A stretch of 62,448 nt of DNA. It comes from Coriobacteriales bacterium. GTDB lineage: Bacteria > Actinomycetota > Coriobacteriia > Coriobacteriales > UBA8131. The DNA lies in assembly GCA_031268525.1 (NCBI GenBank), contig JAIRXA010000042.1, forward strand, positions 1 through 62,448, read 5' to 3'. The notes under the pieces are model-generated. The model was not told the origin of the DNA and ran no database searches. It saw only the letters and a list, made by a program, of their open reading frames with translations. The translations under genes and the position numbers were made by a program. This document shows positions 9,015 to 48,446 of the stretch, one piece after another. The first letter of the stretch is position 1, and each line of letters opens with the position of its first letter.

Positions 9015-9156
9015 ACAACAACCCTTCTCTTGGTACCTTTGGTTCATTTGTGCGGATTCGTAGTCTAGCATAGAGTGAAAGGGTGCAGGAGGAATTGTGA
9101 GCAGCACGTCGGGAACCAGACATGAGCGCTCTTTATCGATCACTGAATAATTACTC

Positions 9157-9414
9157 TTAAAAGACCACGGATTTGTACGTAAAGTTCAGGCAGTTACTGC
9201 AAGGAAGTACGGCGGATATCTCATTAGGGTCGGTGGTCGCACGTCCGTTGCCGCACGCGACATAGCTGCCCCAAGTCTGGTAGTAGGTCCTCGCCACATA
9301 ATTGGCGCAATGTTCACGATCATGCGGTGCTTCGGCTTTTCCTGATGCCGACGATCCGCCACTCACTTGCTCAAGCTCTTTGTCCGACAACGCCTTTTCG
9401 TCCAATTCGCTCAT
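9157..9414 (-). CDS. Double-glycine-leader peptide precursor (class II bacteriocin / signalling-peptide-like), 85 aa
   Basis: The leader MSELDEKALSDKELEQVSGG matches the LSxxELxxIxGG double-glycine consensus. The 65-aa core has 4 Cys. A strong RBS (aaggaga) lies 6 nt upstream of ATG 9412-9414. Confidence 0.7.
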   Translation of the reverse strand: MSELDEKALSDKELEQVSGGSSASGKAEAPHDREHCANYVARTYYQTWGSYVACGNGRATTDPNEISAVLPCSNCLNFTYKSVVF

Positions 9415-9761
9415 GGTGTTCTCCTTCGATCAGCGACTCCCTGATTCTCATGCGATGAAAACTTGCCCAGAGCCGCAAGACTTCTATTGATTTCCACTAT
9501 ACTACATTATGTTAACGGCCTGCTCATTACCAATATTCATAAACAATACCTTTGTCGCCTTAGTATGCCTTGAGCAGAGATCTCTGAAGAGGCAGCTCTG
9601 CTCAAAAATCAAAACGGTCTGTAGTAAAATGACACGGCAAGGACTTAAGATAAACTGAGATTTTCTCGCCGCTTTGATCAGATGAGAGGCATTGCCATGA
9701 AACTCAATGCGGAAATTATCGCGCAGAATCTTCAGAAGGCGATGGATGTTCAAATTATAGG

Positions 9762-9773
9762 CCCCCCCCCCCC
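9762..9773. repeat. Poly-C homopolymer (12 nt) at the frame junction of the PucR-type regulator gene
   Basis: 9761-9780 reads gccccccccccccagaaact. The upstream frame (ATG 9697) and the downstream frame (ORF 9845-11245) meet exactly here, one nucleotide out of register. Confidence 0.95.
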
Positions 9774-9844
9774 AGAAACTTTCACTGAGGCATACCTGCT
9801 TTCTCGAAAAGGATACCGTACTGGAATCGGATTCTGTCTACCTG

Positions 9845-11245
9845 ATGGAACATGCTGACCCGGGCAGAGTTCCGTTACTGCCAGAGGGTTGCCTTCTGGT
9901 CGTTATCGACGAAGATCCGACCAATCTGGGGAAATGGCGCTATTCCAGCACGGTCAATAATCTGACGCTCCTGGTGGTAAAGAACCGGATTAAGATTACT
10001 GCAGTCTGCAACCACATCCTCAAAATCTTTGAACACTTCACAACATGGGAGAATCAACTCAGAGAAATTATTCAAGGTTCTGGAAACATAAAGGAAATGA
10101 TTACCATAAGCGTACCGAATTTCGAAAATCCAATTGGCGTGGTAGATCAAAAAATGCAGGTCATAACTTCTGTGGATATCGTGGATTCGCAGTTTGCTGA
10201 AACATCAATGAAATACTCTGTCAATGACAGGCCGACCTTTCCCAAAGACATACCGGCGGAGCTGATCATGAAAAATCACATCAAATATAAGGCAAAGCGT
10301 GTTCCCTATTTTTATGTGGATAAATCGATTTACTCTGTCAATCTGTTTTCTGACGATGACTATATCGGCTCGGTAAGTCTCGCAGCCAAATTTCGACCAT
10401 TGACACATGCCGACATGGCTCTATTTGAATTTTTGGCAGAATTTTTACGTGAAGGATTATTGAAGCTCACGCCCGTTAAGGTTCATGAGAAAACCTGCCT
10501 GAGAAGTGTATTCATCAGTCTGTTGAAGAAAGCTGAAGTCAATGGAAAAGCCATCAAGGAGGCTTATCGGGGCCTCGATGACAAGCATCAATTTACAATC
10601 CTATGTCTTTATAACTCAACAATACATAGAGACATTCCCCCTGAATATATATGCGAACAGATAGAGCTCAGAATAGACGGATCATTGGCGACCTGCGTAG
10701 ATTCGGAGATTGTTATCCTTCTGAGTCTTGATGCACGGCAAAGCAATCTCGAGGATGCAATTCGCGGAATTTCCAGTTTTCTCGCAGAGTTCGATTTCCT
10801 GGCGGGCGTCAGCAACATATTCACCGAATTGGAAGACGTGTATTTCAATTATCTCCAGGCAAAATATGCGTTAGCAATAGGTTCTGGGACCAAGGCGGGT
10901 CAATCCTATTATCTTTTTCAAGAATTTGCCCTGTTATATCTTCTCAATAAAATGCTGGAAGACTTACCGCCCAGGTTCTTCGTGCCACCAAAGTTGATGC
11001 TCCTGAGCAGCTCTGGCAATACTTCAGGTGCAGAATACTGGAAAACACTGCATGTTTATCTGAAGAATTCCATGAACGTAACGCTTACTGCCAATGAACT
11101 TGGAATTACTCGAGGCTCCCTGTACAAACGCCTGGAAAAGATACATAAAATTCTGGGCATCGATCTGTACAACGCGAAATACCGATTGTATGTCGAAATC
11201 TGCATGAGTCTCATCGAATGGAACATCGAAAGCAAACAGGGGTAG
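9845..11245 (+). CDS. PucR/CdaR-family transcriptional regulator; as assembled it lacks its probable first ~49 codons, which lie in another frame from ATG 9697
   Basis: The C-terminal HTH (MNVTLTANELGITRGSLYKRLEKIHKILGIDL) is typical of the PucR C-terminal domain. There is no RBS before ATG 9845, but gagagg lies 8 nt before ATG 9697. This frame is open back to 9761. Confidence 0.8.
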   Translation: MEHADPGRVPLLPEGCLLVVIDEDPTNLGKWRYSSTVNNLTLLVVKNRIKITAVCNHILKIFEHFTTWENQLREIIQGSGNIKEMITISVPNFENPIGVVDQKMQVITSVDIVDSQFAETSMKYSVNDRPTFPKDIPAELIMKNHIKYKAKRVPYFYVDKSIYSVNLFSDDDYIGSVSLAAKFRPLTHADMALFEFLAEFLREGLLKLTPVKVHEKTCLRSVFISLLKKAEVNGKAIKEAYRGLDDKHQFTILCLYNSTIHRDIPPEYICEQIELRIDGSLATCVDSEIVILLSLDARQSNLEDAIRGISSFLAEFDFLAGVSNIFTELEDVYFNYLQAKYALAIGSGTKAGQSYYLFQEFALLYLLNKMLEDLPPRFFVPPKLMLLSSSGNTSGAEYWKTLHVYLKNSMNVTLTANELGITRGSLYKRLEKIHKILGIDLYNAKYRLYVEICMSLIEWNIESKQG

Positions 11246-11296
11246 AAAGGTTCTGAGACGGCATTATCGCTACAGATGCCTATCGTTTCATCGATA

Positions 11297-11348
11297 GAAA
11301 AATACCCAATAATGCCATGGCGCATTTGCAACCATGGCATTATTGGGT
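11297..11348 (-). terminator. Intrinsic terminator after the MDR dehydrogenase gene
   Basis: A 17-bp perfect stem, acccaataatgccatgg (11304-11320) / ccatggcattattgggt (11332-11348), is followed on the minus strand by attttt. Confidence 0.7.
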
Positions 11349-11369
11349 GTCGATAAGGCGAGGGGTACC

Positions 11370-12395
11370 TCAATAGACGATGGTGACCTTCTGAGATTCG
11401 GCAGGATTATTGGCCATCTTGAAAGCCTCAAGTATGTCATCCTGTTTGAACTGGTGTGATATAAGTGGAGCAAGATCGTATTTGTTTGATTTCATCATTT
11501 CAAGAACGTCAGGGGCAACATCTTCATAGCGACCATCGCCACATCCGCAGATACAGAGATCGTTATAGCAAACCTTTATGAGATCGAGTGTCTTTGGATG
11601 ATGGTGAACTCCTACGATCGATAAAACTGCACATCTTGATGCAAGTTCCATAAAGTAATCAACACCTACATCAACTGTCAGAGCATCTACATATAAATCT
11701 GCGCCACAGCCTTCGCCCATAAATTTCCGCTTCGTCCCAAACTCAGACTTAGCCCTTTCTGCAAGATCCTCGTTTTGAGGATTACAGACAAGGAAGCCAA
11801 AACTCTCTGCATTTTTCAGGCGATAATCAGAGATATCAACGACCATAACCCTATCGCAGCCATACCAATCCAGCATGATGGCAGAAGACATTCCAATAAT
11901 GCCTGCACCGAAAACTATGCCGGTTTTGCCCGGACCGGGATTCGTCCGTCTGGCCCCCTTTGTGCCGATGACAAAAGGTTCGAGAAGTACAGAAGAAAGG
12001 AGCGGTATATCCCTGTCGATCTTGATGGCGCTGAAATTAATCTCGAAATCTGGGATATGGACATATTCGGAAAAGCCACCGACGGTTGCTGTACGCATAT
12101 AGTCACGCTTGGCATTGCCCATATTGGGGAATACATGGTCCCCGATCTCGATATCCTTGACGTTCTTTCCAACCTCGATGACTTCACTTGTCATTTCATG
12201 CCCGAATTCAGAACCCTCCCAAATCATGTTGGCGTCGCCACCTAGATTGAAGGCAGCAAGATCGCCACCGCAAATTCCAGCTATTCTATTTTTCACAATT
12301 ACATCATTATCGCCGCATTGTGGATAAGGCAACTCCTCAATATCGATTTTCCCAATCCCTTTGTAGATTGCAGCTTTGTAGGTTTTTTGCGTCAT
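11370..12395 (-). CDS. Zinc-type medium-chain dehydrogenase/reductase (MDR family)
   Basis: GICGGDL (catalytic Cys), FGHE, a GDHV motif, and a GAGIIG Rossmann motif. No structural-zinc Cys cluster is visible. Confidence 0.85.
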   Translation of the reverse strand: MTQKTYKAAIYKGIGKIDIEELPYPQCGDNDVIVKNRIAGICGGDLAAFNLGGDANMIWEGSEFGHEMTSEVIEVGKNVKDIEIGDHVFPNMGNAKRDYMRTATVGGFSEYVHIPDFEINFSAIKIDRDIPLLSSVLLEPFVIGTKGARRTNPGPGKTGIVFGAGIIGMSSAIMLDWYGCDRVMVVDISDYRLKNAESFGFLVCNPQNEDLAERAKSEFGTKRKFMGEGCGADLYVDALTVDVGVDYFMELASRCAVLSIVGVHHHPKTLDLIKVCYNDLCICGCGDGRYEDVAPDVLEMMKSNKYDLAPLISHQFKQDDILEAFKMANNPAESQKVTIVY

Positions 12396-12438
12396 AGTCT
12401 ATTCTCCTTCATGCCTGTACCTGGAATCTGATATGTAT

Positions 12439-12498
12439 TTTGACCATCAAGCTGGCTGAAGAAATGCTCTATGGAACCAAGCCAGCTTGATGGTCAAA
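12439..12498. repeat. 19-bp perfect inverted repeat with a 22-nt loop, between the GcvT-like gene and the MDR gene
   Basis: Arms are tttgaccatcaagctggct (12439-12457) and agccagcttgatggtcaaa (12480-12498). No U-tract on either strand. Confidence 0.85.
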
Positions 12499-12525
12499 TA
12501 GTGCGTCAGTGACTGAATTGCAGAA

Positions 12526-13584
12526 TCATGCGAAAACTCTTTCGGTCAAAGTTCCTGAATATCCGTTAATGACAATGCGATCGCCGATCTTTGCCTTATC
12601 GGCATCGACAAGGGCAAAGCCGATGCTTCGTTCGGAGATGTAGCCATAGGTAAACTTTGTTACACGACCCACCTCTTCGCCACCCATCAATACCGGATGC
12701 CCCGAGCCGCCCCTGTCTTTGGGATGAATATGGACATCGTCCTCGTCTGTGATAAAGCCCAACAGAGTACGCTTTGGCCCTTCTTCTTTGATTTTCAACA
12801 AGGCTTCCTTACCGATAAAATCTTTATTCCAATCGACCCCATCAGCCAGACCAACCTCAAAGGGGTTTGCCCACTGGATATCGGCCATCAGATAGAAGCC
12901 CTTCTCCGTCGGAAGGCTTAAGGCCATAATCTGGAATTCCTGCACTTCGACAGCGCCGAAGTCCTTGCCAGTTTCAGCAAGCTTGGCTTCAATGGTTTCG
13001 CAGAACGCGGGAGAAACATAGATCTCATAGCCCACTTTCTCGCCGGTAAATCCACCCCTGTTGATTTTCACGGGGATGTCATCGATCTTGTTGTCAAGAA
13101 TCTGGAAGAATTTCTGATCATCAATATTCTTTTCAACAAGTGCATTAACCAAGTCTTTTGATTTGGGGCCCTGTACGGCATACATATCCCATTGGTCGGT
13201 GATGATTTCATAGGTAACATCATAGTCGCCCTTATGAGTATCAAGCCATCTCGTTAATTTGACAGCATACAGCGTTGAGACCCAGAATTTGTTTTCTTCG
13301 AGGCGAAATACAACCACATCATCAAGAATCTGAGCCTGCTCATTGAGCATGGTGGTGTATCTGGCACGGCTGACTTCCAAATTGGAAATGGGCTTCAGGT
13401 AAATCAAATCCAGGAAGGCGGCCGCATCCTTGCCGGTAACTTCGACCAGATGATGCGTGAAATAATACCAGCCCACGGTATTTCTTACCGCCTCATGCTC
13501 CCTACGCTTCCAATCATCGTATTTGTATACGTTTTTAAAGATTTTCATCTCATCGAATCTATAAGCGTCTTCGTTTTTAAACAT
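12526..13584 (-). CDS. Aminomethyltransferase (GcvT) family folate-binding protein
   Basis: 352 aa with GcvT-like architecture: VGWYYFTHHLVEVTGKDAAAFLD, YAVQGPKS, INRGGFTGEKVGYEIYV, and a C-terminal barrel GRVTKFTYGYISERSIGFALVD. Confidence 0.8.
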   Translation of the reverse strand: MFKNEDAYRFDEMKIFKNVYKYDDWKRREHEAVRNTVGWYYFTHHLVEVTGKDAAAFLDLIYLKPISNLEVSRARYTTMLNEQAQILDDVVVFRLEENKFWVSTLYAVKLTRWLDTHKGDYDVTYEIITDQWDMYAVQGPKSKDLVNALVEKNIDDQKFFQILDNKIDDIPVKINRGGFTGEKVGYEIYVSPAFCETIEAKLAETGKDFGAVEVQEFQIMALSLPTEKGFYLMADIQWANPFEVGLADGVDWNKDFIGKEALLKIKEEGPKRTLLGFITDEDDVHIHPKDRGGSGHPVLMGGEEVGRVTKFTYGYISERSIGFALVDADKAKIGDRIVINGYSGTLTERVFA

Positions 13585-13635
13585 GCTCGGTACACCCTTT
13601 CATCTAATAGAACTGTCTCTGAACAAGAGACAATA

Positions 13636-14961
13636 TTAGAGACAGAATTTGTCGACCTTCTTTGCGATCTTAATGCGGAACTTACCCTCGGGGACATCTT
13701 CTGTTTCTTCCCAGAGAGACCACGCGGAACCAATCAAAGTTTTGCTCATGCCATACCACATCGGAATGTAAGCATCCTTCATAAACGCCATGCCATTCTC
13801 GAATCTCTTGATATCAATGTCGTAGATGACATCGTCTTTGTTAAAGGCGACGATGTCGTACTGGTTCTTCCTGGCTTGCAGATAAACCTCTATGTAGGCG
13901 CCCAAAACACGACCGTCATTGACATCATTGGGAACGCCCAGCCAATCGCGAAGGCCCTTGACCGCATAGGCGTCAAGGAACATCATCTTTCCAACACCTC
14001 GAAACATCAACTCAAAGAGGGCGCTTACCTCTTCACGGGTGACTTCGCCTTTTTTAATCATGTCCTGAAGTGCGAACGTGACATAATCGCAGCCGAGGTT
14101 GCTTCCTGAGCTCACGTCATAGCCACCTCTGCCGCCACCTTCTCCGGCGGCGTTATACTCGGCACAGGTTCCTGTGCGATACTTGAACTCACAGTCTTCA
14201 CGAAACATCTGGAGGCCCCTATAATCGAGCTTTTCCTCCTCGGGGGTGTATTTAACGAGCTCCGGTGCAGCTAAAGGACCAAAGTTATCCCATTTTTCTC
14301 GTGGTGGCATGGGAAACTTGTCAGGGTTTTCGCCAATCATGCGACAATGTGGATCGCCACAACCTAAAGCCTCGACCATGGTCACGCGTAACTCTGGGCC
14401 GCGGTCCCTGCTGAATCTTTTCCATGAATCACCGAGCTTTTCCGTACCTGCCCAAGGAGAGGTATGGCAGATCTCTGTGCCTAAGATGTCCCAGGGGCAG
14501 GTATCCAATTCCTTTTCAAAGCGGAAAGAACCAAAGTCGTTGACGCGCCCAGCCATAAACAGACTCTCGTCACCATTATCGCCCGACATGGCCGTCGGAA
14601 AACAACCTCTCATGAAGGGAAAGACGTCCATGGTTACGGCTGTCGGTTTGCAAAAATTTCTGCCTTCAGGTTCAGGGGCGAACATTTTAATATAGAACTC
14701 ATCAGCAGTGTCACAGCAGCGGGTGACACGAGTTGCATAGTCAGGAATATAATGACGAAGTACCTCATAGAACACAGCGCCTACGCCCGCACGATGGCGA
14801 GCAATGAATACCATCGCATCATACAGAGAGATAAGTTTCTCCCAGGGAGTCTTTATAGCTGGATTATCGGGCAGATGACCTTTACCTATGTCGTTGGGTA
14901 AACGGGTGTCGATTGTATTACTCATAATGTCTAACAACTCCTTCCAGAATTTATCATTCAT
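13636..14961 (-). CDS. Hypothetical Cys-rich protein, 441 aa, no family recognised
   Basis: Long ORF 51 nt upstream of the GcvT-like gene on the same strand. It has about 19 Cys in clusters (TRCCDT, LGCGDPHCR, EDCEFKYRTGTCAEY) and a GEGGGRGGY tract. No TM helix or signal peptide is evident. Confidence 0.7.
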   Translation of the reverse strand: MNDKFWKELLDIMSNTIDTRLPNDIGKGHLPDNPAIKTPWEKLISLYDAMVFIARHRAGVGAVFYEVLRHYIPDYATRVTRCCDTADEFYIKMFAPEPEGRNFCKPTAVTMDVFPFMRGCFPTAMSGDNGDESLFMAGRVNDFGSFRFEKELDTCPWDILGTEICHTSPWAGTEKLGDSWKRFSRDRGPELRVTMVEALGCGDPHCRMIGENPDKFPMPPREKWDNFGPLAAPELVKYTPEEEKLDYRGLQMFREDCEFKYRTGTCAEYNAAGEGGGRGGYDVSSGSNLGCDYVTFALQDMIKKGEVTREEVSALFELMFRGVGKMMFLDAYAVKGLRDWLGVPNDVNDGRVLGAYIEVYLQARKNQYDIVAFNKDDVIYDIDIKRFENGMAFMKDAYIPMWYGMSKTLIGSAWSLWEETEDVPEGKFRIKIAKKVDKFCL

Positions 14962-15143
14962 TCAATGTGCTCTATCAGAACGTTGCTGCCTCTCTCCCTT
15001 CTCAAACCTATTCGTTTATTCAACCTGTTCCATAAGCATTTCTCTTTTTGCCTCCTCTCCTTCTGCTTATCGTGTTGATTCGAATTCAAGTTGATAGGAT
15101 TTTTTGATCCCACTCGCGGAAAGATTCACAACCTATGTTTTGT

Positions 15144-16568
15144 CTAGGCCTGCGGCTTTGATTTCACCAGGAACTGCCCCATGACCAAAGCTATGACAGC
15201 TATGGCAGTGGCAATGACGAGCGCTACGTTCATTCCCTGCGTAATGCCAAAACTGGCCATAATCAGTGTATAGACAGCCATGCCAATGCTTGAACCGAGA
15301 TTTTGTGCTGTCTGCACCAACGAATTGGCTTGAAATCGCAATTCAGGCTTGATTTGGATTTGCGGCGCAGTCGACGAGGTGACGTTTTGTTGTGCAGAAT
15401 ACAGACCCGCAATAAACATCAACACATAGACGATCGGGAGCGGCGTTTGAGGAGATAGGATGATTATGACCGCTATGGTTACCACGATTCTCACCAGGGT
15501 ACCCACGGTGATCAAACCACGAGCGCTGCCTTGGCGCACAATCAATTTCCCCAGAAATGGACTGATAAAAATGCCCGGCACGGCATAAATGGCTGTGCTG
15601 AACGCTGCGTAGAGACCGCCACCATCTAAAACACTGATAATATATGCAGGCATGAAAAATACCAGAGCATTGGCTGAAGTATTGATGAAGAAATTATAGA
15701 GGGCAAGAGCCACCGTATTACGATCTTTCAGCATTGCCAGGGGGATAAAGGCCTGTTCACGCTTTTTGGAAAAATCTACCAGCAGCATCACAAAACCAAC
15801 CATCGCCACCAAAATAAGTGCATGGGACAGAGGGCTTCCGAATGGAACGTAGGTAGTACCGAGCGATAATGTCATGACCAGTCCGAGCAATAACAAAGTG
15901 AGAGAAAATGCGCCAAGGGCATCAAATCCAACTTTCCCCTTAAGATGGGGAGCTGCCTGAGCCCGAGTGACCTTGACGCCGATCATGATGAAAAGTACTG
16001 CCAGCAGAAGCAGTGGCACACTGATGCGATACGCTACTCGCCAACCCAGAGTGTCGGTTATAAGTCCAATGATCGTTGGCCCAATAAACATACCTATGCT
16101 GGTCACGGTGCCAATAAAGCCAAGGTAGATTGCTGCCTGGCGTGCATTGTACATATCTCGGATCATAGAATACGCCACCACGAAAATGGAAGCGCTTACT
16201 GCTCCATAAAAGAAGTTGACAGCAATAATCACAAACATGTTTGGCGCAAAGGAAATAGCTGTAAAGATTGCAGCGCCCAGTGTTAATGAGCCGGCAAGAA
16301 GAGGGCGCTTCAGTGCTGGATTACCGGCACCCAGAAAACCGTAGATCGGCATGATGCAGATCGACATTGCACCACCAACGCTCGATACCAATGGGTAAAT
16401 ATCCATACCACCAATATCGAGTGCCGCCATGGGTAATAAGGTAAATGTGCCGGTTGAGATGAAGCGCGTAATCAAAGCTGCAAGGTATATACCAATAAGA
16501 GTGAGCCTCTTCTTCGAAGGGGAAGCCATCGCAAAGAGGTTAACCAGCTCTCTTTTCTGTGCATCCAT
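15144..16568 (-). CDS. MFS transporter (14-TM, DHA2-like), paralog 1
   Basis: 474 aa, hydrophobic throughout, with a GxLxDxxGWR-like motif (GLITDTLGWRVAY). Collinear with the two genes upstream. Confidence 0.85.
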   Translation of the reverse strand: MDAQKRELVNLFAMASPSKKRLTLIGIYLAALITRFISTGTFTLLPMAALDIGGMDIYPLVSSVGGAMSICIMPIYGFLGAGNPALKRPLLAGSLTLGAAIFTAISFAPNMFVIIAVNFFYGAVSASIFVVAYSMIRDMYNARQAAIYLGFIGTVTSIGMFIGPTIIGLITDTLGWRVAYRISVPLLLLAVLFIMIGVKVTRAQAAPHLKGKVGFDALGAFSLTLLLLGLVMTLSLGTTYVPFGSPLSHALILVAMVGFVMLLVDFSKKREQAFIPLAMLKDRNTVALALYNFFINTSANALVFFMPAYIISVLDGGGLYAAFSTAIYAVPGIFISPFLGKLIVRQGSARGLITVGTLVRIVVTIAVIIILSPQTPLPIVYVLMFIAGLYSAQQNVTSSTAPQIQIKPELRFQANSLVQTAQNLGSSIGMAVYTLIMASFGITQGMNVALVIATAIAVIALVMGQFLVKSKPQA

Positions 16569-16657
16569 GATATGCGCGCTTCTTTCCTGATAGATACGTT
16601 GCCACGATGGTTCAAGGTCCGGACAATTCTTTGATTGCCCATGTAGGGCTTCTTATC

Positions 16658-16692
16658 TTTCCCAGAGGCGCGTCAACGGCGCCTCTGGGAAA
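16658..16692 (-). other. 14-bp GC-rich hairpin just after the MFS paralog 2 stop
   Basis: tttcccagaggcgc / gcgcctctgggaaa with a 7-nt loop. The trailing U-tract is weak, so terminator function is uncertain. Confidence 0.5.
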
Positions 16693-16706
16693 TCCAGTCG
16701 TACCAA

Positions 16707-18182
16707 TCAGTGTTCTGTCTCTTTCGCAAGTGTTTCCGCCCTTGCTTTTATGTCTTCCTGCTCCTTCTCCTCGTTCCAATCAGGTTTCTTCATGATTATT
16801 CCGCAGATCATGAGTGCCACAGCTCCGGCAAGGGCCAGATAGAGCCCATAGGTCATGCCCTGTTCTTGCCCAAATGCTGTAATAATTGCGGTATACACAG
16901 GAATACTCAATACGCCACCGTAGGTCTGTCCGAGCTGGATGAGCGCATTGGATTGTTGCCGAACCTTAGGCTCGATCATGACCTGAGGTGCCGCGGTTGT
17001 AACAATGTTAGCCGCTGAAGCGTAAAGACCCGCAAGGAGCATCAGAAAATATACGACATAGATATTGGCGCCGGGAACAAGGACGAAAATGAAAACAATG
17101 GTAATAGCCACTCTCCAGGCTCCACTGAACCAGATAACGATAGGTTTAACCGTACCGGATTTTGCTACCCAACGACCAAATATCGGACCGAGGAAAAGGC
17201 CAACGACTGCATAGCACGACATCGCAATGCTTGAAGCACCGGCTCCAGTGCCAAGAACATAAATCAGGAACATGGGCAGGAAGAAGGAAAGGGCCATCGA
17301 AGAGAAGGGGCTGAAGAAGTTTGCTCCAAAGAGCGCAATGGTATTTCTGTTCTTGAACGCAGAAAGGGGAACTATGGCTGCATCTCTCTTTCTCCTGATG
17401 GTAATGATCAAAACAACCAGAGAGATGGCAGCAACCGCGAAAAGCAGATTATTGGCAAGAGTGCCAAATTTTATATAGTTGCCGCCGAGAGAGAGGGCGA
17501 CTATCAGGCTGGCGAGTAAAAAGCTCAGCGAAAGCGCCCCTATGAGATCGAACTTTCCCTGCACATACGATATCAATTTTCCTTCTTCTTTGGTAATGCG
17601 AGCACCAAAGAAGACTATGATGGCAGCGATGAGGAAGATTGTCGCCTGAAATCCTGTAACAAAGCGCCAGCTCGCCAGCTCAATCAAGCCACCCGTTAAA
17701 ACCGGACCTACCAACGAACCAACCGCAAGCATGGTTGCGAGAAAGCCCAGGTAAATTCCCGCTTGCTTTTGACTGAAGCAGTCTCTGATTATGGTATAGC
17801 CAAAGGTATACAGTGCAGCTGACGCGAAGCCAATCAAGACTGACGGAATAATAAAAGCCAACATATTCGGAGCAAGCGTACGACCCAGCAAGGCTACGAC
17901 ACCCAAGAGAAAGCCCACGACAAAGCCTGTTCGCTTAAGCGTAGGAAATTTTGCCCCGAGAAAGCCAAAGAGCGGCATTGTGGCAACGCTGATAGGGCCA
18001 ATCACTGATGCGGCAAGGGAGTAGATGTCTTCTCCGCCTATATCCTGTGCCGCCATCGGCAGAAGTATTGAGTTGCCCATTGCTATTGTGATGGATCCGA
18101 ACATTCCGATATAAACGCCAATTACCGTCAGCATTTTTCGTACTTGAGTATTATTTCGATAGGGATTTACCACGTCCATCAT
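16707..18182 (-). CDS. MFS transporter, paralog 2
   Basis: Very similar along its length to paralog 3, for example ITKEEGKLISYVQGKFDLIGAL and the tail MKKPDWNEEKEQ. Start trimmed to ATG 18180-18182, preceded by ggaga and matching paralog 3's MDAVNPY start. Confidence 0.85.
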   Translation of the reverse strand: MMDVVNPYRNNTQVRKMLTVIGVYIGMFGSITIAMGNSILLPMAAQDIGGEDIYSLAASVIGPISVATMPLFGFLGAKFPTLKRTGFVVGFLLGVVALLGRTLAPNMLAFIIPSVLIGFASAALYTFGYTIIRDCFSQKQAGIYLGFLATMLAVGSLVGPVLTGGLIELASWRFVTGFQATIFLIAAIIVFFGARITKEEGKLISYVQGKFDLIGALSLSFLLASLIVALSLGGNYIKFGTLANNLLFAVAAISLVVLIITIRRKRDAAIVPLSAFKNRNTIALFGANFFSPFSSMALSFFLPMFLIYVLGTGAGASSIAMSCYAVVGLFLGPIFGRWVAKSGTVKPIVIWFSGAWRVAITIVFIFVLVPGANIYVVYFLMLLAGLYASAANIVTTAAPQVMIEPKVRQQSNALIQLGQTYGGVLSIPVYTAIITAFGQEQGMTYGLYLALAGAVALMICGIIMKKPDWNEEKEQEDIKARAETLAKETEH

Positions 18183-18306
18183 TCTGTCTCCAAACCGTTT
18201 CTCGTTTCCGCAAGGTACGAAGAATGGCTGGACAGCGAGCTGCCGCCACTCTTCGTCATATTCTGTCTTTGCCAAAGACACCAAAAAACACGCTTCTGGG
18301 AATTAA

Positions 18307-19791
18307 TCACACCGAACTGTCGTTGTCCGTCTCTTTCGCAAGTGTGGCCGCTCTTGCCTGTATCGCTGCCTGTTCCTTTTCTTCATTCCAATCGGGTTTC
18401 TTCATGAAGAAACCCAGGATCATGAGCACGATTGCGCCCGTAAGAGCTATACAGAGACCGTAGGTCATGCCTTGTTCCAGACCAAATACCCCGATGATGG
18501 CTGTGTAGGTTGCAATACCCAATACGCCACCAAAGTTCTGCGTGAGCTGAATGAGTGCATTGGATTGTTGCCGAATGCTCGGTTCAATCATAATCTGAGG
18601 CGCTGTGGCAGAAGTAATGTTGTTTGCATTGGCATACATGCCCCCCAAAAACATCAGGGCATAGATGACATAGAGATTCGCTCCGGGAACAAGTACGAAG
18701 ATGAAAGCAATGGTAATGACTACTCTCCAGGCTCCACTGAACCAGATGACGATGGGCTTTGCCGTACCAACTCTTGCTACCCAACGACCAAATATGGGAC
18801 CGAGGAAAAGACCGAGGATTGCATAGCACGAAACCGCAATGCTCGAAGCACCGGCTCCAACACCGAGAATATAAATGAGAAACATGGGCAAGAAGAAGGA
18901 GAGTGCCATTGAATCGAAGGGACCGAGAAAGTTTGCTGCAGCAAGTGCAATGGTATTTCGACTCTTAAACGCAGAACGAGGCACTATGGCGGCGTCACCT
19001 TTCTTTCTGATGACAAAGATTAAAACAATTAAAGCGATCAATGCGGCAGCCAGGAGAAGTATGTTAAAAGGAGTACCGAATTTTATGTAGTTGCCACCAA
19101 GAGATAAGGCAACTATCAGGCCGCCGAGTAAAACGATAATCGCCAAGGCTCCTGCAAGGTCGAACTTCCCCTGTACATACGATATCAGTTTCCCCTCTTC
19201 CCTGGTGATGCGAGCACCGAAGAAGACTATGATGGCAGAAATAATGAAGAGTGTTGCCTGAAACGCTGGGACAGATCGCCAGCCAAACAACTCAATGAAA
19301 CCACCCGTTAAAACCGGACCTATCAACGAACCAACTGAGAACATCGATGCTACAAGTCCCAGATAAAACCCCGCCTGTTTTTGGCTGAAGCAATCTCTGA
19401 CCATTGAGTAACCAAATGTATAGAGCGCTCCTGATTCGATGCCAAGTAAGGCCGATGGAATGATAAAGGCGACCATATTCGGAGCAATGATTCGGCATAT
19501 CAGGGCTACAGCGCCCAATAGGAAGGCCGTACAAAAACCAATGCGCTTGATGTGGGGGAATTTTGCTCCGACATAGCCAAAAAGAGGCATTGCTACCACG
19601 CTCAAAATGCCACCTATTGTCGCAGCCAATGAGTAGATTTCTTCCCCTCCTATATCCTGCGCCGCTACCGGAAGCAGTATTGAGTTACCCATGGCAATCG
19701 TAATGGCGGAGACCATACCAACATAGATGCCGACGACTGTCAGCATCTTTCGCGCTTGAGAATTCTTCTGGTAGGGATTCACTGCGTCCAT
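18307..19791 (-). CDS. MFS transporter, paralog 3
   Basis: Start set to MDAVNPYQKNSQARKMLTV, with ggaga before ATG 19789-19791. ITREEGKLISYVQGKFDLAGAL and the tail MKKPDWNEEKEQ mirror paralog 2. Confidence 0.85.
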   Translation of the reverse strand: MDAVNPYQKNSQARKMLTVVGIYVGMVSAITIAMGNSILLPVAAQDIGGEEIYSLAATIGGILSVVAMPLFGYVGAKFPHIKRIGFCTAFLLGAVALICRIIAPNMVAFIIPSALLGIESGALYTFGYSMVRDCFSQKQAGFYLGLVASMFSVGSLIGPVLTGGFIELFGWRSVPAFQATLFIISAIIVFFGARITREEGKLISYVQGKFDLAGALAIIVLLGGLIVALSLGGNYIKFGTPFNILLLAAALIALIVLIFVIRKKGDAAIVPRSAFKSRNTIALAAANFLGPFDSMALSFFLPMFLIYILGVGAGASSIAVSCYAILGLFLGPIFGRWVARVGTAKPIVIWFSGAWRVVITIAFIFVLVPGANLYVIYALMFLGGMYANANNITSATAPQIMIEPSIRQQSNALIQLTQNFGGVLGIATYTAIIGVFGLEQGMTYGLCIALTGAIVLMILGFFMKKPDWNEEKEQAAIQARAATLAKETDNDSSV

Positions 19792-20577
19792 TATTCCGTC
19801 TCCAATCCTTTCTTGCTCGTATGTGGGCATGCATTGCAGCTCTCTGTCTTTTTATTGACTGGTTTGAACAGAGCAGCGACTGGCTAACGTATGTAACTCA
19901 TCGTTTCATATTCAGCTATCAAGGTGCACCTATAAAACTTCTTGAAATACCCCTTGACTTCCATGGTTGGGTCGCTCGAAGCCCTCTTATTCATATTCCT
20001 CTCAGTGATATCTACCCTCTCAATTGTCAGGTCAATCTCTCCTGCTTCTCTGGGAAACAGGATGGTAACCATTTGAAAACCATCTGTTATTCTTATTCAA
20101 AAATGCAGCATTTGATATACGGCAAACTGTTTCCCAAAAGCCCTGAATTGGTGCACACTTTATAACCTGAGCCCGCAGATGGGCAAAGCGGTTTATGCCT
20201 TTCTACCAGCACAAATAGCTCTTGTGATGTCTCCAGGATAATCTTTGCAGCGAAACGGCTTTTACGGGGAGGTGCCTTCCTGGGCATTACTTCCCTCTTC
20301 AAGCCACTCGGTTGAGGCGATGAGGCCGATCAGTTGTGTGCGTCCCGCCACCAAGTCCATCAATACCCTCTCAATACCACGCATGCTCGAAACAGGGGCA
20401 GCGACAGGCGGGAAACAAAATGTGCACCAAAACACACAGGTAAAGCAACAGCTTGCTGTCTAGGGAAAGGCACGTATTGAGGAGATAATGGAAGTACCTT
20501 GTGGCTGGGTATTTCTCGTACCCACCCCTGAAGGAGCAGGATGAAAGGTAGATTCTTTTCGAGAGGAGAAGCATTTC

Positions 20578-21585
20578 ATGCGAGCAGCCATTTATCATGA
20601 TATACAGGATGTTTCTATTGAAGAGATACCGGATCTTCGCTGTGGAGCCAGGGACGTTCTGGTCAGGAATGTCCGGGCAGGCATCTGCGGCTCTGATGTT
20701 ACCGGCTATTTTAAGGGTGGTAAATATGCCGGAATTTATGAGGATAGACAGTTTGGCCACGAAAATGCGGGTCGTATAGTTGAAGTCGGAAAAGATGTTG
20801 AAGGATTCGGCGTTGGAGATAAGGTCTTTGTCAATCCCAATAGAGCCATTGCGCCAGGCGAGGGAGATATGCTTGGCGCTTTTTCTGAATATATTCTCGT
20901 GCCGAACGCAGAGGCCAATTACAACATATTTCTACTCCCTGAAAACATGAGTTACGATGTCGCTGTTTTGATTGAGCCTTTTTCTGTTGGCATACATGGA
21001 TATAATGTTGCAGGCGTGAAGCCAGATGACCATGTCGTCGTTTATGGGGTTGGAACGATCGGCATCAGCAGTATCTGTGGCCTCCTTGCCAAAGGCATCA
21101 AACCGGTCGCGATGGTAAGAAGCAATGCCAAAAGAGAGTTTCTTGAGCGAGCGGGAGCCATCGTGTGCAATATCAATGAAGTAGACCGGTTTGAATTTTT
21201 GAGAGAAACATTCGGAACAACACTTCATAGAAATCGCTATCCTGCAATCGATGTCGATCTTGTCATTGACGCTGCAGGCGGTCCTGAAATCGTTGCGGAT
21301 TTCCTTCAAATGTGTAAGCCGAAATCAAAGTTGTCAGTTCTTGCTGTCGTTTTTGAGCCATTTCCTGTACCGATGGCCCGTCTTATGAGTTCAGAAACGA
21401 TAATCATGGGATCCTGTGGTTTTAACGAGGAAGATGTCCTTGAGGCCATCGATAATTTGACTTCAGGCAAGACGCTGATGCCTGGGATCATTACAAGCCA
21501 CTACAAACTCGATCAGATCAATGAGGCGATCGTAATGGCACAAAACCGTGAAAAATCAATTAAAGTTCTTATTGATATGGAGTAG
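20578..21585 (+). CDS. Zinc-type medium-chain dehydrogenase/reductase (MDR family), second copy
   Basis: GICGSDV, FGHENAG, GDKVFVNP and a GVGTIG Rossmann motif. Same subfamily look as 11370-12395. Confidence 0.85.
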   Translation: MRAAIYHDIQDVSIEEIPDLRCGARDVLVRNVRAGICGSDVTGYFKGGKYAGIYEDRQFGHENAGRIVEVGKDVEGFGVGDKVFVNPNRAIAPGEGDMLGAFSEYILVPNAEANYNIFLLPENMSYDVAVLIEPFSVGIHGYNVAGVKPDDHVVVYGVGTIGISSICGLLAKGIKPVAMVRSNAKREFLERAGAIVCNINEVDRFEFLRETFGTTLHRNRYPAIDVDLVIDAAGGPEIVADFLQMCKPKSKLSVLAVVFEPFPVPMARLMSSETIIMGSCGFNEEDVLEAIDNLTSGKTLMPGIITSHYKLDQINEAIVMAQNREKSIKVLIDME

Positions 21586-21651
21586 TCTCCTTCGACACGT
21601 AAGCCATATCACCTCGGTCGTGCTGGAAGATCACTACAGAAGGGATGCCTT

Positions 21652-22173
21652 GTGCACGAAACACTACTGAATAAATATGCAATAAACCATATCGGATATT
21701 ACGTTAAAGATCTTGAGTTGGCCTGTAGAGAACATTCTGCTCTTTTCGGATCGGGTCCGTTCTTTTACCTGGGCGAACACACAATGACGAGTATCGCGAG
21801 AGGCAGGGAATATGAATATACCTCCCGAGCGGCTTTCGGACAATTTGGAGACCTTCAGATAGAGTTCATTCAGGTGATCAGCGACAACCCCAGTGCCTAT
21901 AAAGAAATGGAACGATTCGGCCTCAATCATTTTTCAATCTGGGTTGATAACGTGGATAGCGCAATTGAAGAATTCGAGAACGCGGGCTATGAAATCGCGA
22001 TGCGACTGAAATCAAGCGGAGGTGCCGAGATCATCTACTTTGATGGTGTAGAAAAATGGGGGCACTATCTGGAAGTCAGCGCTCCTGCCGAGGGTATGTA
22101 TGAGTACTTCAAGAAGGCCGCTGAAGACTGGGATGGCTCAGAACCCTATCGTAGGCTCAATATGGGTAAGTAA
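21652..22173 (+). CDS. VOC (glyoxalase/bleomycin-resistance/dioxygenase) family protein
   Basis: INHIGYYVKDLE...FGLNHFSIWVDNVD...WGHYLEV shows the paired beta-alpha-beta-beta-beta module pattern. GTG start per the ORF track. Confidence 0.75.
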   Translation: MHETLLNKYAINHIGYYVKDLELACREHSALFGSGPFFYLGEHTMTSIARGREYEYTSRAAFGQFGDLQIEFIQVISDNPSAYKEMERFGLNHFSIWVDNVDSAIEEFENAGYEIAMRLKSSGGAEIIYFDGVEKWGHYLEVSAPAEGMYEYFKKAAEDWDGSEPYRRLNMGK

Positions 22174-22226
22174 GATAGCAGAATAAAAGTATAGTATCAT
22201 CTTCTGCCTGAGGCGATCCAGTGGGC

Positions 22227-22706
22227 CTATTTGTGATAGGGCTCGCCAGCCAGTATCTTGAAGGCGCGGTAGATCTGTTCGAGCGCAACGACGCGGGCGA
22301 GCTGATGCGGCAGGGTGATGGCGCCAAAGGACATGCGCGCATCGGCACGCTTGAGCAAGGCGGAATCGAGTCCATGCGAACCGCCAATGAGGAAACGTAT
22401 CTGGGCCTGCCCCCGTATCTGTCGATCGCCGATCAAGGCGGCGATCTCCTCGCTCGTAAACGATCGCCCTGTGCGATCGAGAGCCACGAGCAACTCGCCG
22501 CCCTTCAATCGCGCGGCGATGAGCTCGCCTTCACGCTGAAGAGCCTGACGGGGATCATCGCTGTCCCAGGACCCCCGATCACTGATTTCCTCAATCCTGA
22601 CCTCGGCATAACGCACCAGACGCGTCAGATACTCCTCGCATGCTTCCACCCAGTAAGGTTCCCTGAGCTTGCCGACCGCAGTGATCGTAATACGTGTCGA
22701 GGGCAT
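22227..22706 (-). CDS. rlmH: 23S rRNA (pseudouridine1915-N3)-methyltransferase RlmH
   Basis: 159 aa, typical RlmH/SPOUT: ITITAVGKLREPYW...IGGSHGL...SFGAITLPHQLARVVALEQIYRAF. Confidence 0.92.
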   Translation of the reverse strand: MPSTRITITAVGKLREPYWVEACEEYLTRLVRYAEVRIEEISDRGSWDSDDPRQALQREGELIAARLKGGELLVALDRTGRSFTSEEIAALIGDRQIRGQAQIRFLIGGSHGLDSALLKRADARMSFGAITLPHQLARVVALEQIYRAFKILAGEPYHK

Positions 22707-23434
22707 CAGCTGGCATCCTCGCTCAGCGTAAGCCGGGTGATCGAGCGCAGGTCCAACTCGCTACCCTCGCCGCCCTCACCGCCTTCAGCAGCAGCCCTGA
22801 GCAGCACCTCGGGTCGGATAGAGCCCTGCTCGCCGGATCGCAGGGTCATCGTGACCTCATAAAGCCCCGGCTCACCTGGCACAGGCATGAATTCAGGCGC
22901 TTGGATGATGGCGGTTTTGAGGTCGTAGGTCTTCAGTTTATTCTTACGCTTGACGCTCAACTCGCCTGTCTCCAACAGACGGGCCACCCCTGCACGCACA
23001 GTCTCTCTGAGCTCAGAAGACAGGGCGACCACCAACACATATGTTTCTACCACATGGGTCGCAGCCAGACCCCTGGCTTTTGGATCAACATACGACACAT
23101 CACGCACCTCCAGCCCCGGTGGGGCAACCTCTTGCAGAGCAATACGGGCGACGGGAGCCGGTACATACTCGGTCAGCCAAACGTCGAAGAGCTCGGCAAG
23201 GCCACAGGTCCCAACGGGTAGTGCCGGCCCGGGTGCATGGCGCATATGAGCAGAGAAGCCCTGAGTCACCACGGAGGGCAGTCCACTGCGGCGCACAAGG
23301 CGCTCCAGTGCCCGCGTGAGCTCGAGATGAGAGAGAAGTGCCAGCCGCCCTGTCTTTGCATAGCGTATCCTCAGGCGAAAATACCCCTCAGCCACGGCGC
23401 TCACCCGCCAGATCGTTGCTGGCACCCGTCGCAT
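22706..23434 (-). CDS. DUF2344-type protein (radical-SAM-linked)
   Basis: FRLRIRYAKTGRLALLSHLELTRALERLVRRSGLP is the usual N-terminus of this family, which partners the upstream radical SAM gene. Start uncertain: ATG 23434 or GTG 23395, both overlapping the upstream stop. Its stop overlaps the rlmH start by 1 nt. Confidence 0.75.
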   Translation of the reverse strand: MRRVPATIWRVSAVAEGYFRLRIRYAKTGRLALLSHLELTRALERLVRRSGLPSVVTQGFSAHMRHAPGPALPVGTCGLAELFDVWLTEYVPAPVARIALQEVAPPGLEVRDVSYVDPKARGLAATHVVETYVLVVALSSELRETVRAGVARLLETGELSVKRKNKLKTYDLKTAIIQAPEFMPVPGEPGLYEVTMTLRSGEQGSIRPEVLLRAAAEGGEGGEGSELDLRSITRLTLSEDAS

Positions 23435-48374: not shown

Positions 48375-48446
48375 TTTCGCTGTTAATGCGCGCGAAAGAC
48401 AACCGCTGAGGAGAAAATCGGTTGACTTTCGCGCGCATTAACGAAA
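48375..48446. repeat. Long imperfect inverted repeat / hairpin (about 28-bp arms, 13-nt loop)
   Basis: tttcgctgttaatgcgcgcgaaagacaaccg ... cggttgactttcgcgcgcattaacgaaa. The core 17 bp, gttaatgcgcgcgaaag, is perfect. Confidence 0.85.

Follow-up and report, generated by a model that had tools for sequence, protein, structure and literature searches.

What does a 12.8-kb block of lower-G+C DNA encode where it stands between two core operons of a Coriobacteriales genome, and was it acquired? Contig JAIRXA010000042.1 (NCBI GenBank assembly GCA_031268525.1; GTDB lineage Bacteria; Actinomycetota; Coriobacteriia; Coriobacteriales; UBA8131) was analyzed over positions 1 to 62,448 of its forward strand, and this whole stretch of 62,448 nucleotides is referred to as the window. 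The block, or island, occupies positions 9415-22226 and carries nine genes. These encode a regulator of the PucR family, two MDR dehydrogenases (MDR1 and MDR2), a protein of the GcvT family (the GcvT-like protein), an unannotated protein that we call V4R2, three MFS transporters (MFS1 to MFS3), and a VOC protein. A reading of the window made from the letters alone (the sequence-only reading) had assigned these genes correctly in every case, as judged by Pfam and NCBIfam scans, and had taken them for a regulated pathway for the uptake and demethylation or oxidation of a small substrate. We find that the fixed part of the island is the pair of V4R2 and the GcvT-like protein, which may together form a tetrahydrofolate (THF)-dependent one-carbon-removing system.

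V4R2 is encoded in at least 167 GTDB species, counted among species representatives, with up to three copies per genome. The carriers are mostly gut Clostridia (Blautia, Lachnospiraceae, Oscillospiraceae, Merdimonas, Mogibacterium, Cuneatibacter, Laedolimicola, and Bilifractor). Further carriers are Spirochaetes, Desulfosarcina, Eubacteriaceae, Fusibacter, Sporosalibacterium, Alkalibacter, Paratissierella, and two Coriobacteriia-like metagenome-assembled genomes. Locus statistics were compiled from the 80 loci that were fetched, and Pfam families were counted over three genes on either side of V4R2 at 39 non-redundant loci. A GcvT-like gene adjoins V4R2 at 73 of the 80 loci and a partial copy does so at 2 more; the remaining 5 have at most 610 bp of sequence downstream. 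The two genes are co-directional with a median gap of 31 bp, and V4R2 comes first in 69 of the 73 pairs. Even the most distant full-length V4R2 member is still accompanied by a GcvT-like gene, together with genes for a hydrolase and an SDR dehydrogenase.

The other partners are less constant. PucR genes are present at 52 of the 80 loci. The census counted 39 SDR genes, 25 PucR genes (HTH_30), 14 MFS_1 genes, 10 MDR genes, and 6 genes for LuxR-type regulators (GerE). Formate-THF ligase, PanB-like (Pantoate_transf), and trigger-factor-C-like genes were found twice each, and FolD and Cpn60-like genes once each. The fixed unit of the cassette is V4R2 plus the GcvT-like protein, with PucR at about two-thirds of loci and SDR or MDR dehydrogenases as the commonest other neighbors. 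The MFS, VOC, and MDR2 genes make up a variable periphery that is found in some relatives only. The eight or nine genes of the island had been read as a single pathway; the set is no chance assembly, but its members are unequal, the V4R2 and GcvT-like genes being fixed and the periphery variable.

This gradation is visible in individual lineages. The cassette of Desulfitobacterium chlororespirans contains PucR, GcvT-like, V4R2, SDR, MDR, and MFS genes, and that of Eubacteriaceae ES2 contains formate-THF ligase, PucR, GcvT-like, V4R2, MDR, MFS, and SDR genes. A gut metagenome lineage has PucR, SDR, VOC, MDR, MFS, V4R2, and GcvT-like genes, and Fusibacter has SDR, V4R2, and GcvT-like genes. An aldehyde:ferredoxin oxidoreductase gene joins the cassette in another lineage, and some cassettes neighbor esterases of a feruloyl-esterase-like family. 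The commonest human-gut version (216 blocks of the collection) consists of a divergent PucR gene followed by V4R2, GcvT-like, and SDR genes, without a transporter. Such minimal gut cassettes adjoin integrase, DUF6076, and excisionase-like genes. PanB-like paralogues were detected by tblastn and Pfam in four related cassettes, three each in L015 and L019 and one each in L025 and L026. In L015 and L019, the richest of the related cassettes, a protein with a trigger-factor C-terminal domain is encoded immediately upstream of V4R2, and L015 additionally has a Cpn60/TCP-1-type chaperonin. These genes hint at dedicated chaperones and several folate-linked one-carbon steps in the richest cassettes.

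The two fixed partners also diverge in parallel. Over 38 pairs, the pairwise identities of V4R2 and of the GcvT-like protein correlate with r = 0.75, a correlation that is to some degree expected for any two co-inherited genes. The GcvT-like protein is the more conserved partner in 78% of these comparisons, which fits an invariant cofactor chemistry in the GcvT-like protein and a variable specificity in V4R2. Each fold, taken singly, is known. The V4R2 family is unannotated, and neither Pfam and NCBIfam nor the literature searched describe its obligatory association with a GcvT-like protein, together with a cognate PucR and a dehydrogenase. In line with the sequence-only reading, these family libraries and this literature yielded no characterized pathway with the gene set of the island.

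V4R2 belongs to a small, tight, and unannotated family, as far as sequence searches reveal. It gave no Pfam match at E values up to 1 and no NCBIfam match, and the Pfam V4R family (PF02830) was not matched. Only 157 homologues were found in 5.8 billion clustered proteins. Among the matches listed, 0 of 120 homologues had a precomputed Pfam domain and nearly all were named "hypothetical protein"; one homologue (P0031) bears the UniRef name of a "4-vinyl reductase 4VR domain" protein. A profile search over 1.84 billion representatives returned 160 matches, the longest of 453 aa, and revealed neither a fusion with a GcvT-like or other domain nor remote relatives. Comparison with 31 homologues places the likely start at Met-12 (ATG 14928), giving a protein of 430 aa. 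The protein had been described as a Cys-rich unknown. It is indeed without a family match, but the richness in cysteine amounts to four conserved Cys and one His (Cys-154, Cys-164, Cys-200, His-204, and Cys-205). An alignment of 32 members has 48 invariant positions and a conserved acidic/basic stretch, GD-GDE...GRVNDFG-YR-EKELD-C. Glu-196 is conserved along with the four cysteines and the histidine, and Cys-154, Glu-196, Cys-200, and Cys-205 are invariant or nearly so. The V4R2 of this contig is itself not in the 5.8-billion-cluster collection, where its best match is 83% identical, and the PcrA and GcvT-like proteins of the same contig are present there at 100%. The V4R2 gene may be uncalled or differently called in the public record of this contig.

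The AlphaFold2 (AF2) model of V4R2 has a pLDDT of 87 and a pTM of 0.85. It shows two modules in succession, each helical with a β-hairpin, at approximately residues 45-210 and 280-433. A Foldseek search of the PDB with the full model retrieved H-NOX proteins, Bet3/TRAPP, and the phenol-sensor domains of MopR, PoxR, and DmpR at modest E values (3e-3 upward). The C-terminal half modeled alone (AF2 pLDDT 85) matched the same group with TM-scores of 0.45-0.58 and probabilities of 0.99-1.0, and over all searches the matches to Bet3, H-NOX, and MopR/PoxR/DmpR had E values from 7e-4 to 1e-2. Homology between V4R and Bet3 domains has been argued in the literature, where V4R domains are seen as likely binders of hydrophobic ligands that signal in cis or in trans (PMC2253512).

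At the level of sequence profiles, an E-x3-C-x4-C motif in the N-terminal half aligns over about 40 residues with "ECVGCGHPHCR" of PoxR (E ~0.05). In MopR and PoxR this motif is the zinc site beside the phenol pocket; the corresponding Cys/Glu/His motif of V4R2 is a putative zinc site. A profile of the C-terminal half gave no sequence match in the PDB. A match of the N-terminal half to Fe-type butanol dehydrogenase (E = 0.02) was taken as a chance likeness over a helical stretch. A comparison of the two halves for internal duplication found no similarity between their sequences, and the case for two domains is therefore a structural one. V4R2 appears, from its model, to be a pseudo-dimer of two V4R/H-NOX/Bet3-type ligand-binding domains, the first with a putative zinc motif.

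The GcvT-like protein (NCBI MDR1421597.1, "aminomethyltransferase family protein") is a clear member of its superfamily, with matches to GCV_T (E = 1.1e-41, 143 bits; cut-off 25.6) and GCV_T_C (E = 5e-10, 39.6 bits; cut-off 25.9). It falls below the cut-off of every functional model in the family. The scores are 159 bits for GcvT (PRK00389; cut-off 300), 122 bits for GcvT (TIGR00528; cut-off 236), 87 bits for GcvT (PRK13579; cut-off 459), 148 bits for SoxA (cut-off 1164), 130 bits for Tdm (cut-off 1100), 110 bits for DmdA (cut-off 410), 80 bits for DesA (cut-off 800), and 63 bits for LigM (cut-off 580). The GcvT, SoxA, and Tdm models thus outscore those of DmdA, DesA, and LigM, and the DesA and LigM models align with only the N-terminal ~200 residues. 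The best individual match is the Thermotoga maritima T-protein (116 bits), followed by dimethylglycine dehydrogenase, DmdA, sarcosine oxidase alpha, and Tdm. The sequence ILDD aligns opposite IIDD of the T. maritima T-protein (PDB 1woo), in which the second Asp is the catalytic Asp-96. Neither the Pfam-annotated genes of the island and related cassettes nor the 25 commonest families at the 39 census loci include an H-, P-, or L-protein of the glycine cleavage system. Demethylation had been proposed; membership of this family suggests transfer of a one-carbon unit to THF, and that unit could be methyl, methylene, or hydroxymethyl.

The PucR regulator satisfies the family models (HTH_30, 45.9 bits with a cut-off of 27; GGDEF_2, 26.8 bits with a cut-off of 24.5), so that a regulator gene is indeed present, as had been proposed. 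However, its reading frame is broken in this assembly. The true start is the ATG at 9697, which opens MKLNAEIIAQNLQKAMDVQIIGPPPP... and runs to a stop at ~9856, and the called 466-aa frame stays open backwards through a run of 12 C. Deletion of one C restores a protein of 515 aa that starts MKLNAEII.... The restored protein aligns from residue 1 to its end with the PucR proteins of four related cassettes (L015, L002, L004, and L012). This colinearity shows the PucR genes to be cassette-specific orthologues. These proteins have about 515-538 aa and their own long N-terminal region before the helix-turn-helix (HTH) domain. The break in this copy could be a homopolymer mis-assembly, the mark of a pseudogene or inactivated gene, or a slipped-strand on/off switch. 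In the NCBIfam scan the PmfR model matched the island regulator weakly. PmfR is a PucR-type activator of the THF-dependent demethylation operon purU-mabO-folD on pAO1.

Both MDR proteins belong, by sequence comparison, to the polyol or secondary-alcohol branch of their family. MDR1 has sorbitol dehydrogenase, ketose reductase, and threonine dehydrogenase as its closest PDB relatives by sequence, and it falls below every NCBIfam equivalog cut-off, L-threonine 3-dehydrogenase giving the top score (118 bits; cut-off 380). The best NCBIfam match of MDR2 is keto-inositol dehydrogenase IolM (109 bits; cut-off 450), and its PDB relatives are ketose reductase and butanediol dehydrogenase. Five SDR proteins from related cassettes gave only generic matches below the NCBIfam cut-offs. 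One such match, to a "coniferyl-alcohol dehydrogenase" subfamily (170 bits; cut-off 242), is suggestive and not usable. The VOC protein has weak matches to methylmalonyl-CoA epimerase (NCBIfam) and PDB 3gm5, and the family also occurs in the L004, L007, and L015 cassettes.

The MFS proteins do not establish the uptake role that had been proposed, since they may transport in either direction. Their best matches are to models of drug:H+ antiporters of the DHA2 type (TIGR00711), at 50-64 bits against a cut-off of 230, so that the subfamily score is not reached. A crude hydropathy count gave 13-15 peaks, DHA2 antiporters having 14 transmembrane segments. MFS2 and MFS3 share 72% protein identity, and 73% DNA identity across a 300-nt stretch. 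MFS1 is 36% identical to these two and 54% identical to the MFS genes of the L015 cassette. Three successive MFS genes were found in no related cassette examined.

The island is accessory and was horizontally acquired. The sequence-only reading had placed a lower-G+C island between core operons, and the profiles of G+C, G+C at third codon positions (GC3), and codon usage all shift at this place. The G+C content is ~0.46 in the island and ~0.58 outside. In 1-kb windows it is 0.54-0.60 up to 9 kb, 0.42-0.50 at 9-22 kb, and 0.57-0.62 past 22 kb. In 200-bp windows the G+C content rises abruptly at the right edge, ~22.2-22.3 kb, and forms a ramp over 8.9-9.5 kb on the left. GC3 is 0.43-0.54 in the nine island genes and 0.62-0.72 in the flank genes (PcrA, DAHP synthase, chorismate mutase, RlmH, DUF2344, the radical-SAM gene, and RodA), a gap of 0.1-0.3. 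Of the Arg codons, 27% are AGA in the island as against 3% in the flanks; of the Glu codons, 60% and 28%, respectively, are GAA. The left flank consists of PcrA/UvrD, DAHP synthase, and chorismate mutase, and the right flank of rlmH, DUF2344, the radical-SAM gene, an unknown gene, and RodA.

The same site was compared in two relatives with long contigs, found through homologues of PcrA: L172 (PcrA 82% identical) and L173 (PcrA 65% identical). The PcrA of the window is GenBank MDR1421591.1, and its next-best matches are likewise from Coriobacteriales and Coriobacteriia, the closest being the 82% identical protein of assembly GCA_031277035.1 (record JAISLY01). The accession series of this assembly includes metagenome-assembled genomes with names that point to termite guts, a possible origin of the host as well. 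In L173 the order is MreB-MreC-MreD-PBP2-RodA-unknown-radical SAM-DUF2344, a 124-bp gap, and chorismate mutase-DAHP synthase-PcrA. L172 shares this order except that DUF2344 and chorismate mutase are separated by a 1163-aa Flg_new repeat protein. A tblastn search of the two 20-kb loci with all island proteins, RlmH, and the 85-aa open reading frame (ORF) of the left junction found none of them, and both loci have a G+C content of 0.59-0.60 throughout. Since two relatives keep the flanks without the island genes, the block is accessory, as had been surmised. The empty site had been expected to join chorismate mutase directly to rlmH. Instead, the neighbor of chorismate mutase in the relatives is DUF2344, and neither has rlmH at this locus. 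As rlmH is absent in both relatives and L172 has the Flg_new protein, the DUF2344/chorismate-mutase junction looks like a recurrent insertion site. A search of JGI metagenomes for the empty site with RlmH gave only matches of at most 50% identity, and an exact look-up of RlmH gave no match. The nearest cassette (V4R2 79% identical) lies on a 5.7-kb contig with a G+C content of 0.49 and the order V4R2, GcvT-like, MFS, MDR; its composition is like that of the island and unlike that of the host. Clostridia, Spirochaetes, and unbinned contigs contain the closest homologues of the core genes; Coriobacteriia do not.

How might the two fixed proteins work? We propose that the cassette encodes a two-protein, THF-dependent system by which a plant-derived substrate loses a one-carbon unit, and we give this proposal a little less than an even chance of being right. 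We infer each of its elements: the complex, the dependence on THF, the catabolic direction, the type of one-carbon unit, and the substrate. Enzymes of the GcvT family obtain their substrates through an extension of their own (LigM, DesA), a fused domain that generates the one-carbon unit (dimethylglycine oxidase (DMGO), dimethylglycine dehydrogenase (DMGDH), SoxA, Tdm), or a partner (H-protein). Because the GcvT-like protein lacks extensions but has an invariable neighbor with a ligand-binding fold, V4R2 is the candidate substrate binder. V4R2, as a zinc-stabilized pseudo-dimer, would bind a plant-derived and probably hydrophobic or aromatic substrate, and would either hand it to the GcvT-like partner or free the one-carbon unit from it. 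The GcvT-like protein would bind THF and take up this unit. NAD(P)-dependent dehydrogenases, here the two MDR proteins and in relatives mostly SDR proteins, would act on an alcohol or carbonyl of the same substrate. Acting before one-carbon removal, the dehydrogenase could make a carbonyl that activates a neighboring hydroxymethyl or methoxy carbon; acting afterwards, it could oxidize the unmasked hydroxyl. The cassette-specific PucR would turn the operon on in response to substrate, the MFS proteins would bring substrate in or product out, and the VOC protein could catalyze an isomerization or lyase step. Where one genome has several paralogous cassettes, each comes with a PucR of its own, which suggests that the substrates are a group of related compounds. 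As substrates, glycine or threonine, methylated cyclitols (pinitol), sphingoid bases, pantoate, methylxanthines, and steroids were considered and set aside, none having specific support.

The one-carbon step itself can be drawn in two ways. Capture at the level of formaldehyde, as methylene-THF, after the dehydrogenase has made a carbonyl beta to a hydroxymethyl group or to a carbon activated in a similar way, would follow the logic of Tdm, DMGO, and PanB, and is a possibility we hold tentatively. It is favored because, PucR aside, dehydrogenase genes are the commonest neighbors in the census and even the minimal cassette retains one, because richer cassettes have PanB-like paralogues, FolD, and formate-THF ligase, and because the methylene-forming members of its family are the nearer relatives of the GcvT-like protein. 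The alternative, a methyl transfer from an aryl methyl ether like that of LigM and DmdA, with the dehydrogenases then working on the side chain, we hold to be only slightly less likely. In its favor, V4R2 resembles phenol sensors, some neighbors are feruloyl-esterase-like esterases or aldehyde oxidoreductases, and the habitats are rich in lignocellulose (termite, rumen, chicken, and high-fiber human guts, and sediments). A broader formulation, that V4R2 and the GcvT-like protein constitute a new corrinoid- and O2-independent class of two-component THF enzymes that strip methyl or hydroxymethyl groups from plant aromatic or alicyclic alcohols in gut and sediment anaerobes, can be advanced only with reserve.

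The proposed system shares features with several known ones. LigM, DesA, DmdA, and the dicamba demethylases have the same GCV_T folate-binding fold, and they are catabolic enzymes that transfer methyl groups from plant or algal compounds to THF without corrinoid or O2, which is the likeness we propose. They are single polypeptides that bind their own substrates, LigM and DesA having at least 100 extra residues. In contrast, the GcvT-like protein of the cassette has the size of a T-protein (338-352 aa), and a separate partner of 410-440 aa invariably accompanies it. The glycine cleavage T-protein is its closest sequence relative, and T-protein and H-protein are likewise a two-protein arrangement in which the partner passes a one-carbon unit to the folate enzyme. 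However, the cassette partner has a predicted V4R-type fold and is not a lipoyl carrier, and the cassette gene is accessory whereas the T-protein is housekeeping. In Tdm, dimethylglycine oxidase and dehydrogenase, sarcosine oxidase alpha, and MabO, a GcvT-like module captures the one-carbon unit of a neighboring module and keeps free formaldehyde out. The similarity of the cassette protein to the Tdm/DMGO/SoxA group is of the same order as that to GcvT, and the MabO operon is controlled by the PucR-type regulator PmfR. In these enzymes the unit is produced by a fused FAD or DUF1989 domain dependent on O2 or an electron acceptor, whereas the cassette neighbor is a separate protein without a recognizable redox cofactor and the hosts are strict anaerobes.

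The V4R sensors MopR, PoxR, and DmpR match V4R2 in predicted fold (TM-score ~0.45-0.53) and in the aligned E-x3-C-x4-C motif, and the Cys upstream of this motif is conserved in V4R2. Their V4R domains are homodimer-forming N-terminal domains of DNA-binding ATPases; V4R2, by comparison, would be a free-standing fusion of two diverged copies without an output domain. PanB and PanE combine folate-linked one-carbon transfer beside a carbonyl with an NAD(P) ketoreductase, a logic similar to that suggested for the cassette. However, PanB belongs to a different fold family, needs no partner, and is biosynthetic, and no PanB-like gene is present in this window.

Several observations weigh against the proposed two-protein system. 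Since no fusion exists among 1.84 billion representatives, a complex of V4R2 with the GcvT-like protein has gene order alone to argue for it. The Foldseek E values of ~1e-3 are weak, and the sole sequence link to V4R is the ~40-residue motif at E ~0.05. All characterized fold matches (Bet3/TRAPP, H-NOX, MopR/PoxR/DmpR, and BcsD) are ligand binders, sensors, or structural subunits, not enzymes. DmdA also has an Asp at the position of the T-protein residue, so this Asp does not separate methyl from methylene chemistry, and we know of no GcvT-family enzyme that cleaves a C-C bond. The MFS proteins resemble efflux pumps (DHA2/EmrB as the best model; MFS1, 64 bits with a cut-off of 230). Finally, with a frameshifted regulator the cassette may be silent or deregulated in this genome. 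The nature of the fold matches would also suit a different division of labor, in which V4R2 is a small-molecule sensor that controls the GcvT-like protein allosterically or signals to PucR, and the GcvT-like protein alone performs the chemistry. The literature view of V4R domains as signaling modules for hydrophobic ligands (PMC2253512) and the rank of PucR as the next most frequent neighbor after the GcvT-like gene are in keeping with such a role. Nevertheless, V4R2 is tied more closely to the GcvT-like gene (at every evaluable locus, co-directional, with a 31-bp gap) than to PucR, the cassette PucR has its own long region ahead of the HTH, and the GcvT-like protein (~340 aa) is without the extra substrate domain seen in LigM, DMGO, and Tdm. 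We regard the sensor role as unlikely.

The variable genes could alternatively belong to a detoxification or efflux island, in which DHA2-like pumps export a toxin, the VOC protein and the dehydrogenases neutralize aldehydes, and V4R2 and the GcvT-like protein trap formaldehyde on THF. The MFS proteins do match drug:H+ antiporters best, a VOC fold (glyoxalase/bleomycin resistance) is present, the MDR enzymes are weakly similar to formaldehyde dehydrogenases, and GcvT-like domains in Tdm, DMGO, and SoxA are known as a family for trapping formaldehyde or iminium. However, all MFS scores are far under the family cut-offs, most cassettes have neither MFS nor VOC genes, and the minimal gut version has no transporter; a cognate PucR and up to three paralogous cassettes per genome fit substrate-specific catabolism better. 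This makes detoxification distinctly improbable. Still less probable is a synthetic direction, with a one-carbon unit from methylene-THF added to a keto compound and the product then reduced, as by PanB and PanE, to give a specialized metabolite or cofactor precursor. Such a route would account for the PanB-like paralogues of several related cassettes and for the ketoreductase-type SDR as the commonest partner, but not for neighbors that include substrate-responsive regulators of the PucR and LuxR types, transporters, an esterase, and an aldehyde:ferredoxin oxidoreductase, nor for a patchy distribution that looks like horizontal transfer. A recognizable biosynthetic core enzyme was found in none of the loci examined. 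The top NCBIfam scores (GcvT, 159 bits, and L-threonine 3-dehydrogenase for MDR1, 118 bits) might be read as those of an ordinary glycine-cleavage T-protein with a threonine dehydrogenase, displaced from threonine, glycine, or serine catabolism. Both lie far under the cut-offs of 300 and 380 bits, the annotated cassette genes and the top-25 census families include neither an H-, P-, or L-protein nor 2-amino-3-ketobutyrate ligase, and the obligate partner is V4R2; this explanation is nearly excluded. Hardly any weight is left for native DNA of odd composition. Borders without an integrase, tRNA, or flanking direct repeats would suit it, but the site is empty or otherwise filled in two relatives with syntenic flanks and a G+C content of 0.59-0.60, the GC3 gap is 0.1-0.3, and the core genes have their closest homologues outside the Coriobacteriia.

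If the proposed two-protein system is right, an unannotated protein family would gain a function and the V4R fold a new use. V4R2 would then be, to the best of our knowledge, the first protein of the V4R/H-NOX/Bet3 fold that acts not as a sensor or a scaffold but within an enzyme, as its substrate-binding or catalytic subunit. Anaerobic removal of one-carbon units from dietary and lignin-derived compounds is attributed almost wholly to corrinoid-dependent methyltransferases. A second, corrinoid-free route on a mobile cassette would change the prediction of such transformations from metagenomes; the cassette occurs in Blautia, Lachnospiraceae, Oscillospiraceae, termite-gut Clostridia and Spirochaetes, Desulfitobacterium, and others. 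Several cultured species carry it, which brings the question within experimental reach; among the carriers are Desulfitobacterium chlororespirans, Fusibacter paucivorans DSM 12116, Sporosalibacterium faouarense, Alkalibacter mobilis, Paratissierella segnis, Qiania dongpingensis, Cuneatibacter sp. NSJ-177, and Laedolimicola ammoniilytica. Even if the chemistry proves ordinary, the combination of V4R2, GcvT-like, PucR, and dehydrogenase genes is a clean marker for what is now labeled "hypothetical protein" plus "aminomethyltransferase family protein." The coordinates of these genes and of the other features are given in Table 1.

Table 1. Features of the island and its borders in the window, with regions of related loci where named
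Feature	Position	Strand	Description
Left junction	9144..9696	.	composition ramp; includes 85-aa ORF
85-aa ORF	9157-9414	-	between chorismate mutase and island; G+C 0.53, intermediate
PucR-family regulator	9697..11245	+	called ORF 9845-11245, 466 aa; HTH_30 + GGDEF_2
C12 run	9762..9773	+	inside PucR coding sequence; +1 frameshift site
Inverted repeat I4	11304..11348	.	arms 17 bp, 100% complementary; between convergent PucR and MDR1 genes
MDR1	11370-12395	-	zinc-type; ADH_N + ADH_zinc_N; last gene of minus-strand operon
Inverted repeat I3	12439..12498	.	arms 19 bp, 100% complementary; GcvT-like/MDR1 gap
GcvT-like (GcvTL)	12526-13584	-	352 aa; core component; GCV_T + GCV_T_C
V4R2	13636..14928	-	core component; ORF extends to 14961 (441 aa)
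MFS1	15144-16568	-	474 aa; MFS_1
Inverted repeat	16658-16692	.	arms 14 bp, perfect; between MFS2 and MFS1
MFS2	16707-18284	-	525 aa; MFS_1; tandem duplicate of MFS3
MFS3	18307-19830	-	507 aa; MFS_1; first gene of minus-strand operon
Divergent intergenic region MFS3/MDR2	19831..20577	.	747 bp; from gene layout
MDR2	20578-21585	+	zinc-type; ADH_N + ADH_zinc_N; 32% identical to MDR1
VOC protein	21652-22173	+	173 aa; Glyoxalase_4, 1.8e-13
Right junction	22174..22226	.	53 bp, VOC stop codon to rlmH stop codon; abrupt G+C rise
rlmH	22227-22706		between DUF2344 and island
Variable spot, L172	5168-8659		Flg_new protein
Variable spot, L173	8805-8929		gap
PanB-like and chaperone-type gene regions, L015	6425-9606 and 13949-17571
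PanB-like and trigger-factor-C gene regions, L019	1744-3598 and 8043-9877

The borders and intergenic regions of the island were searched for mobility and control elements. An integrase, a tRNA, and flanking direct repeats were looked for at the borders and none was found. Rfam detected no riboswitch in the island or in eight related loci, and promoter and terminator scans performed no better than on shuffled sequence. The divergent region between MFS3 and MDR2 presumably houses the control region of both transcription units. Of the three inverted repeats, which may be terminators or operator-like sites, the one between the convergent PucR and MDR1 genes is probably a bidirectional terminator. 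The 85-aa ORF of the left junction matches no Pfam family, gives only a sub-threshold match to a double-glycine bacteriocin leader model, and is without a counterpart at this locus in either relative (tblastn).

Two further observations concern the surroundings of the island. In the mechanical calls of the right flank, the DUF2344 ORF (22706-23569) and the radical-SAM ORF (23388-25268) share 182 nt. The radical-SAM gene is transcriptionally upstream and ends within the start of the DUF2344 ORF. The real start of DUF2344 probably lies further downstream, because the Pfam match begins at residue 65. Farther along the window, a second patch of low G+C extends from 48000 to 52400, with a minimum of 0.376 at 50-51 kb, and ends beside a tRNA-Val gene (52297-52372). 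It contains a PIN-domain toxin gene (49275-49664) and three ORFs (349, 151, and 155 aa) without a Pfam family, and is probably another small acquired block.

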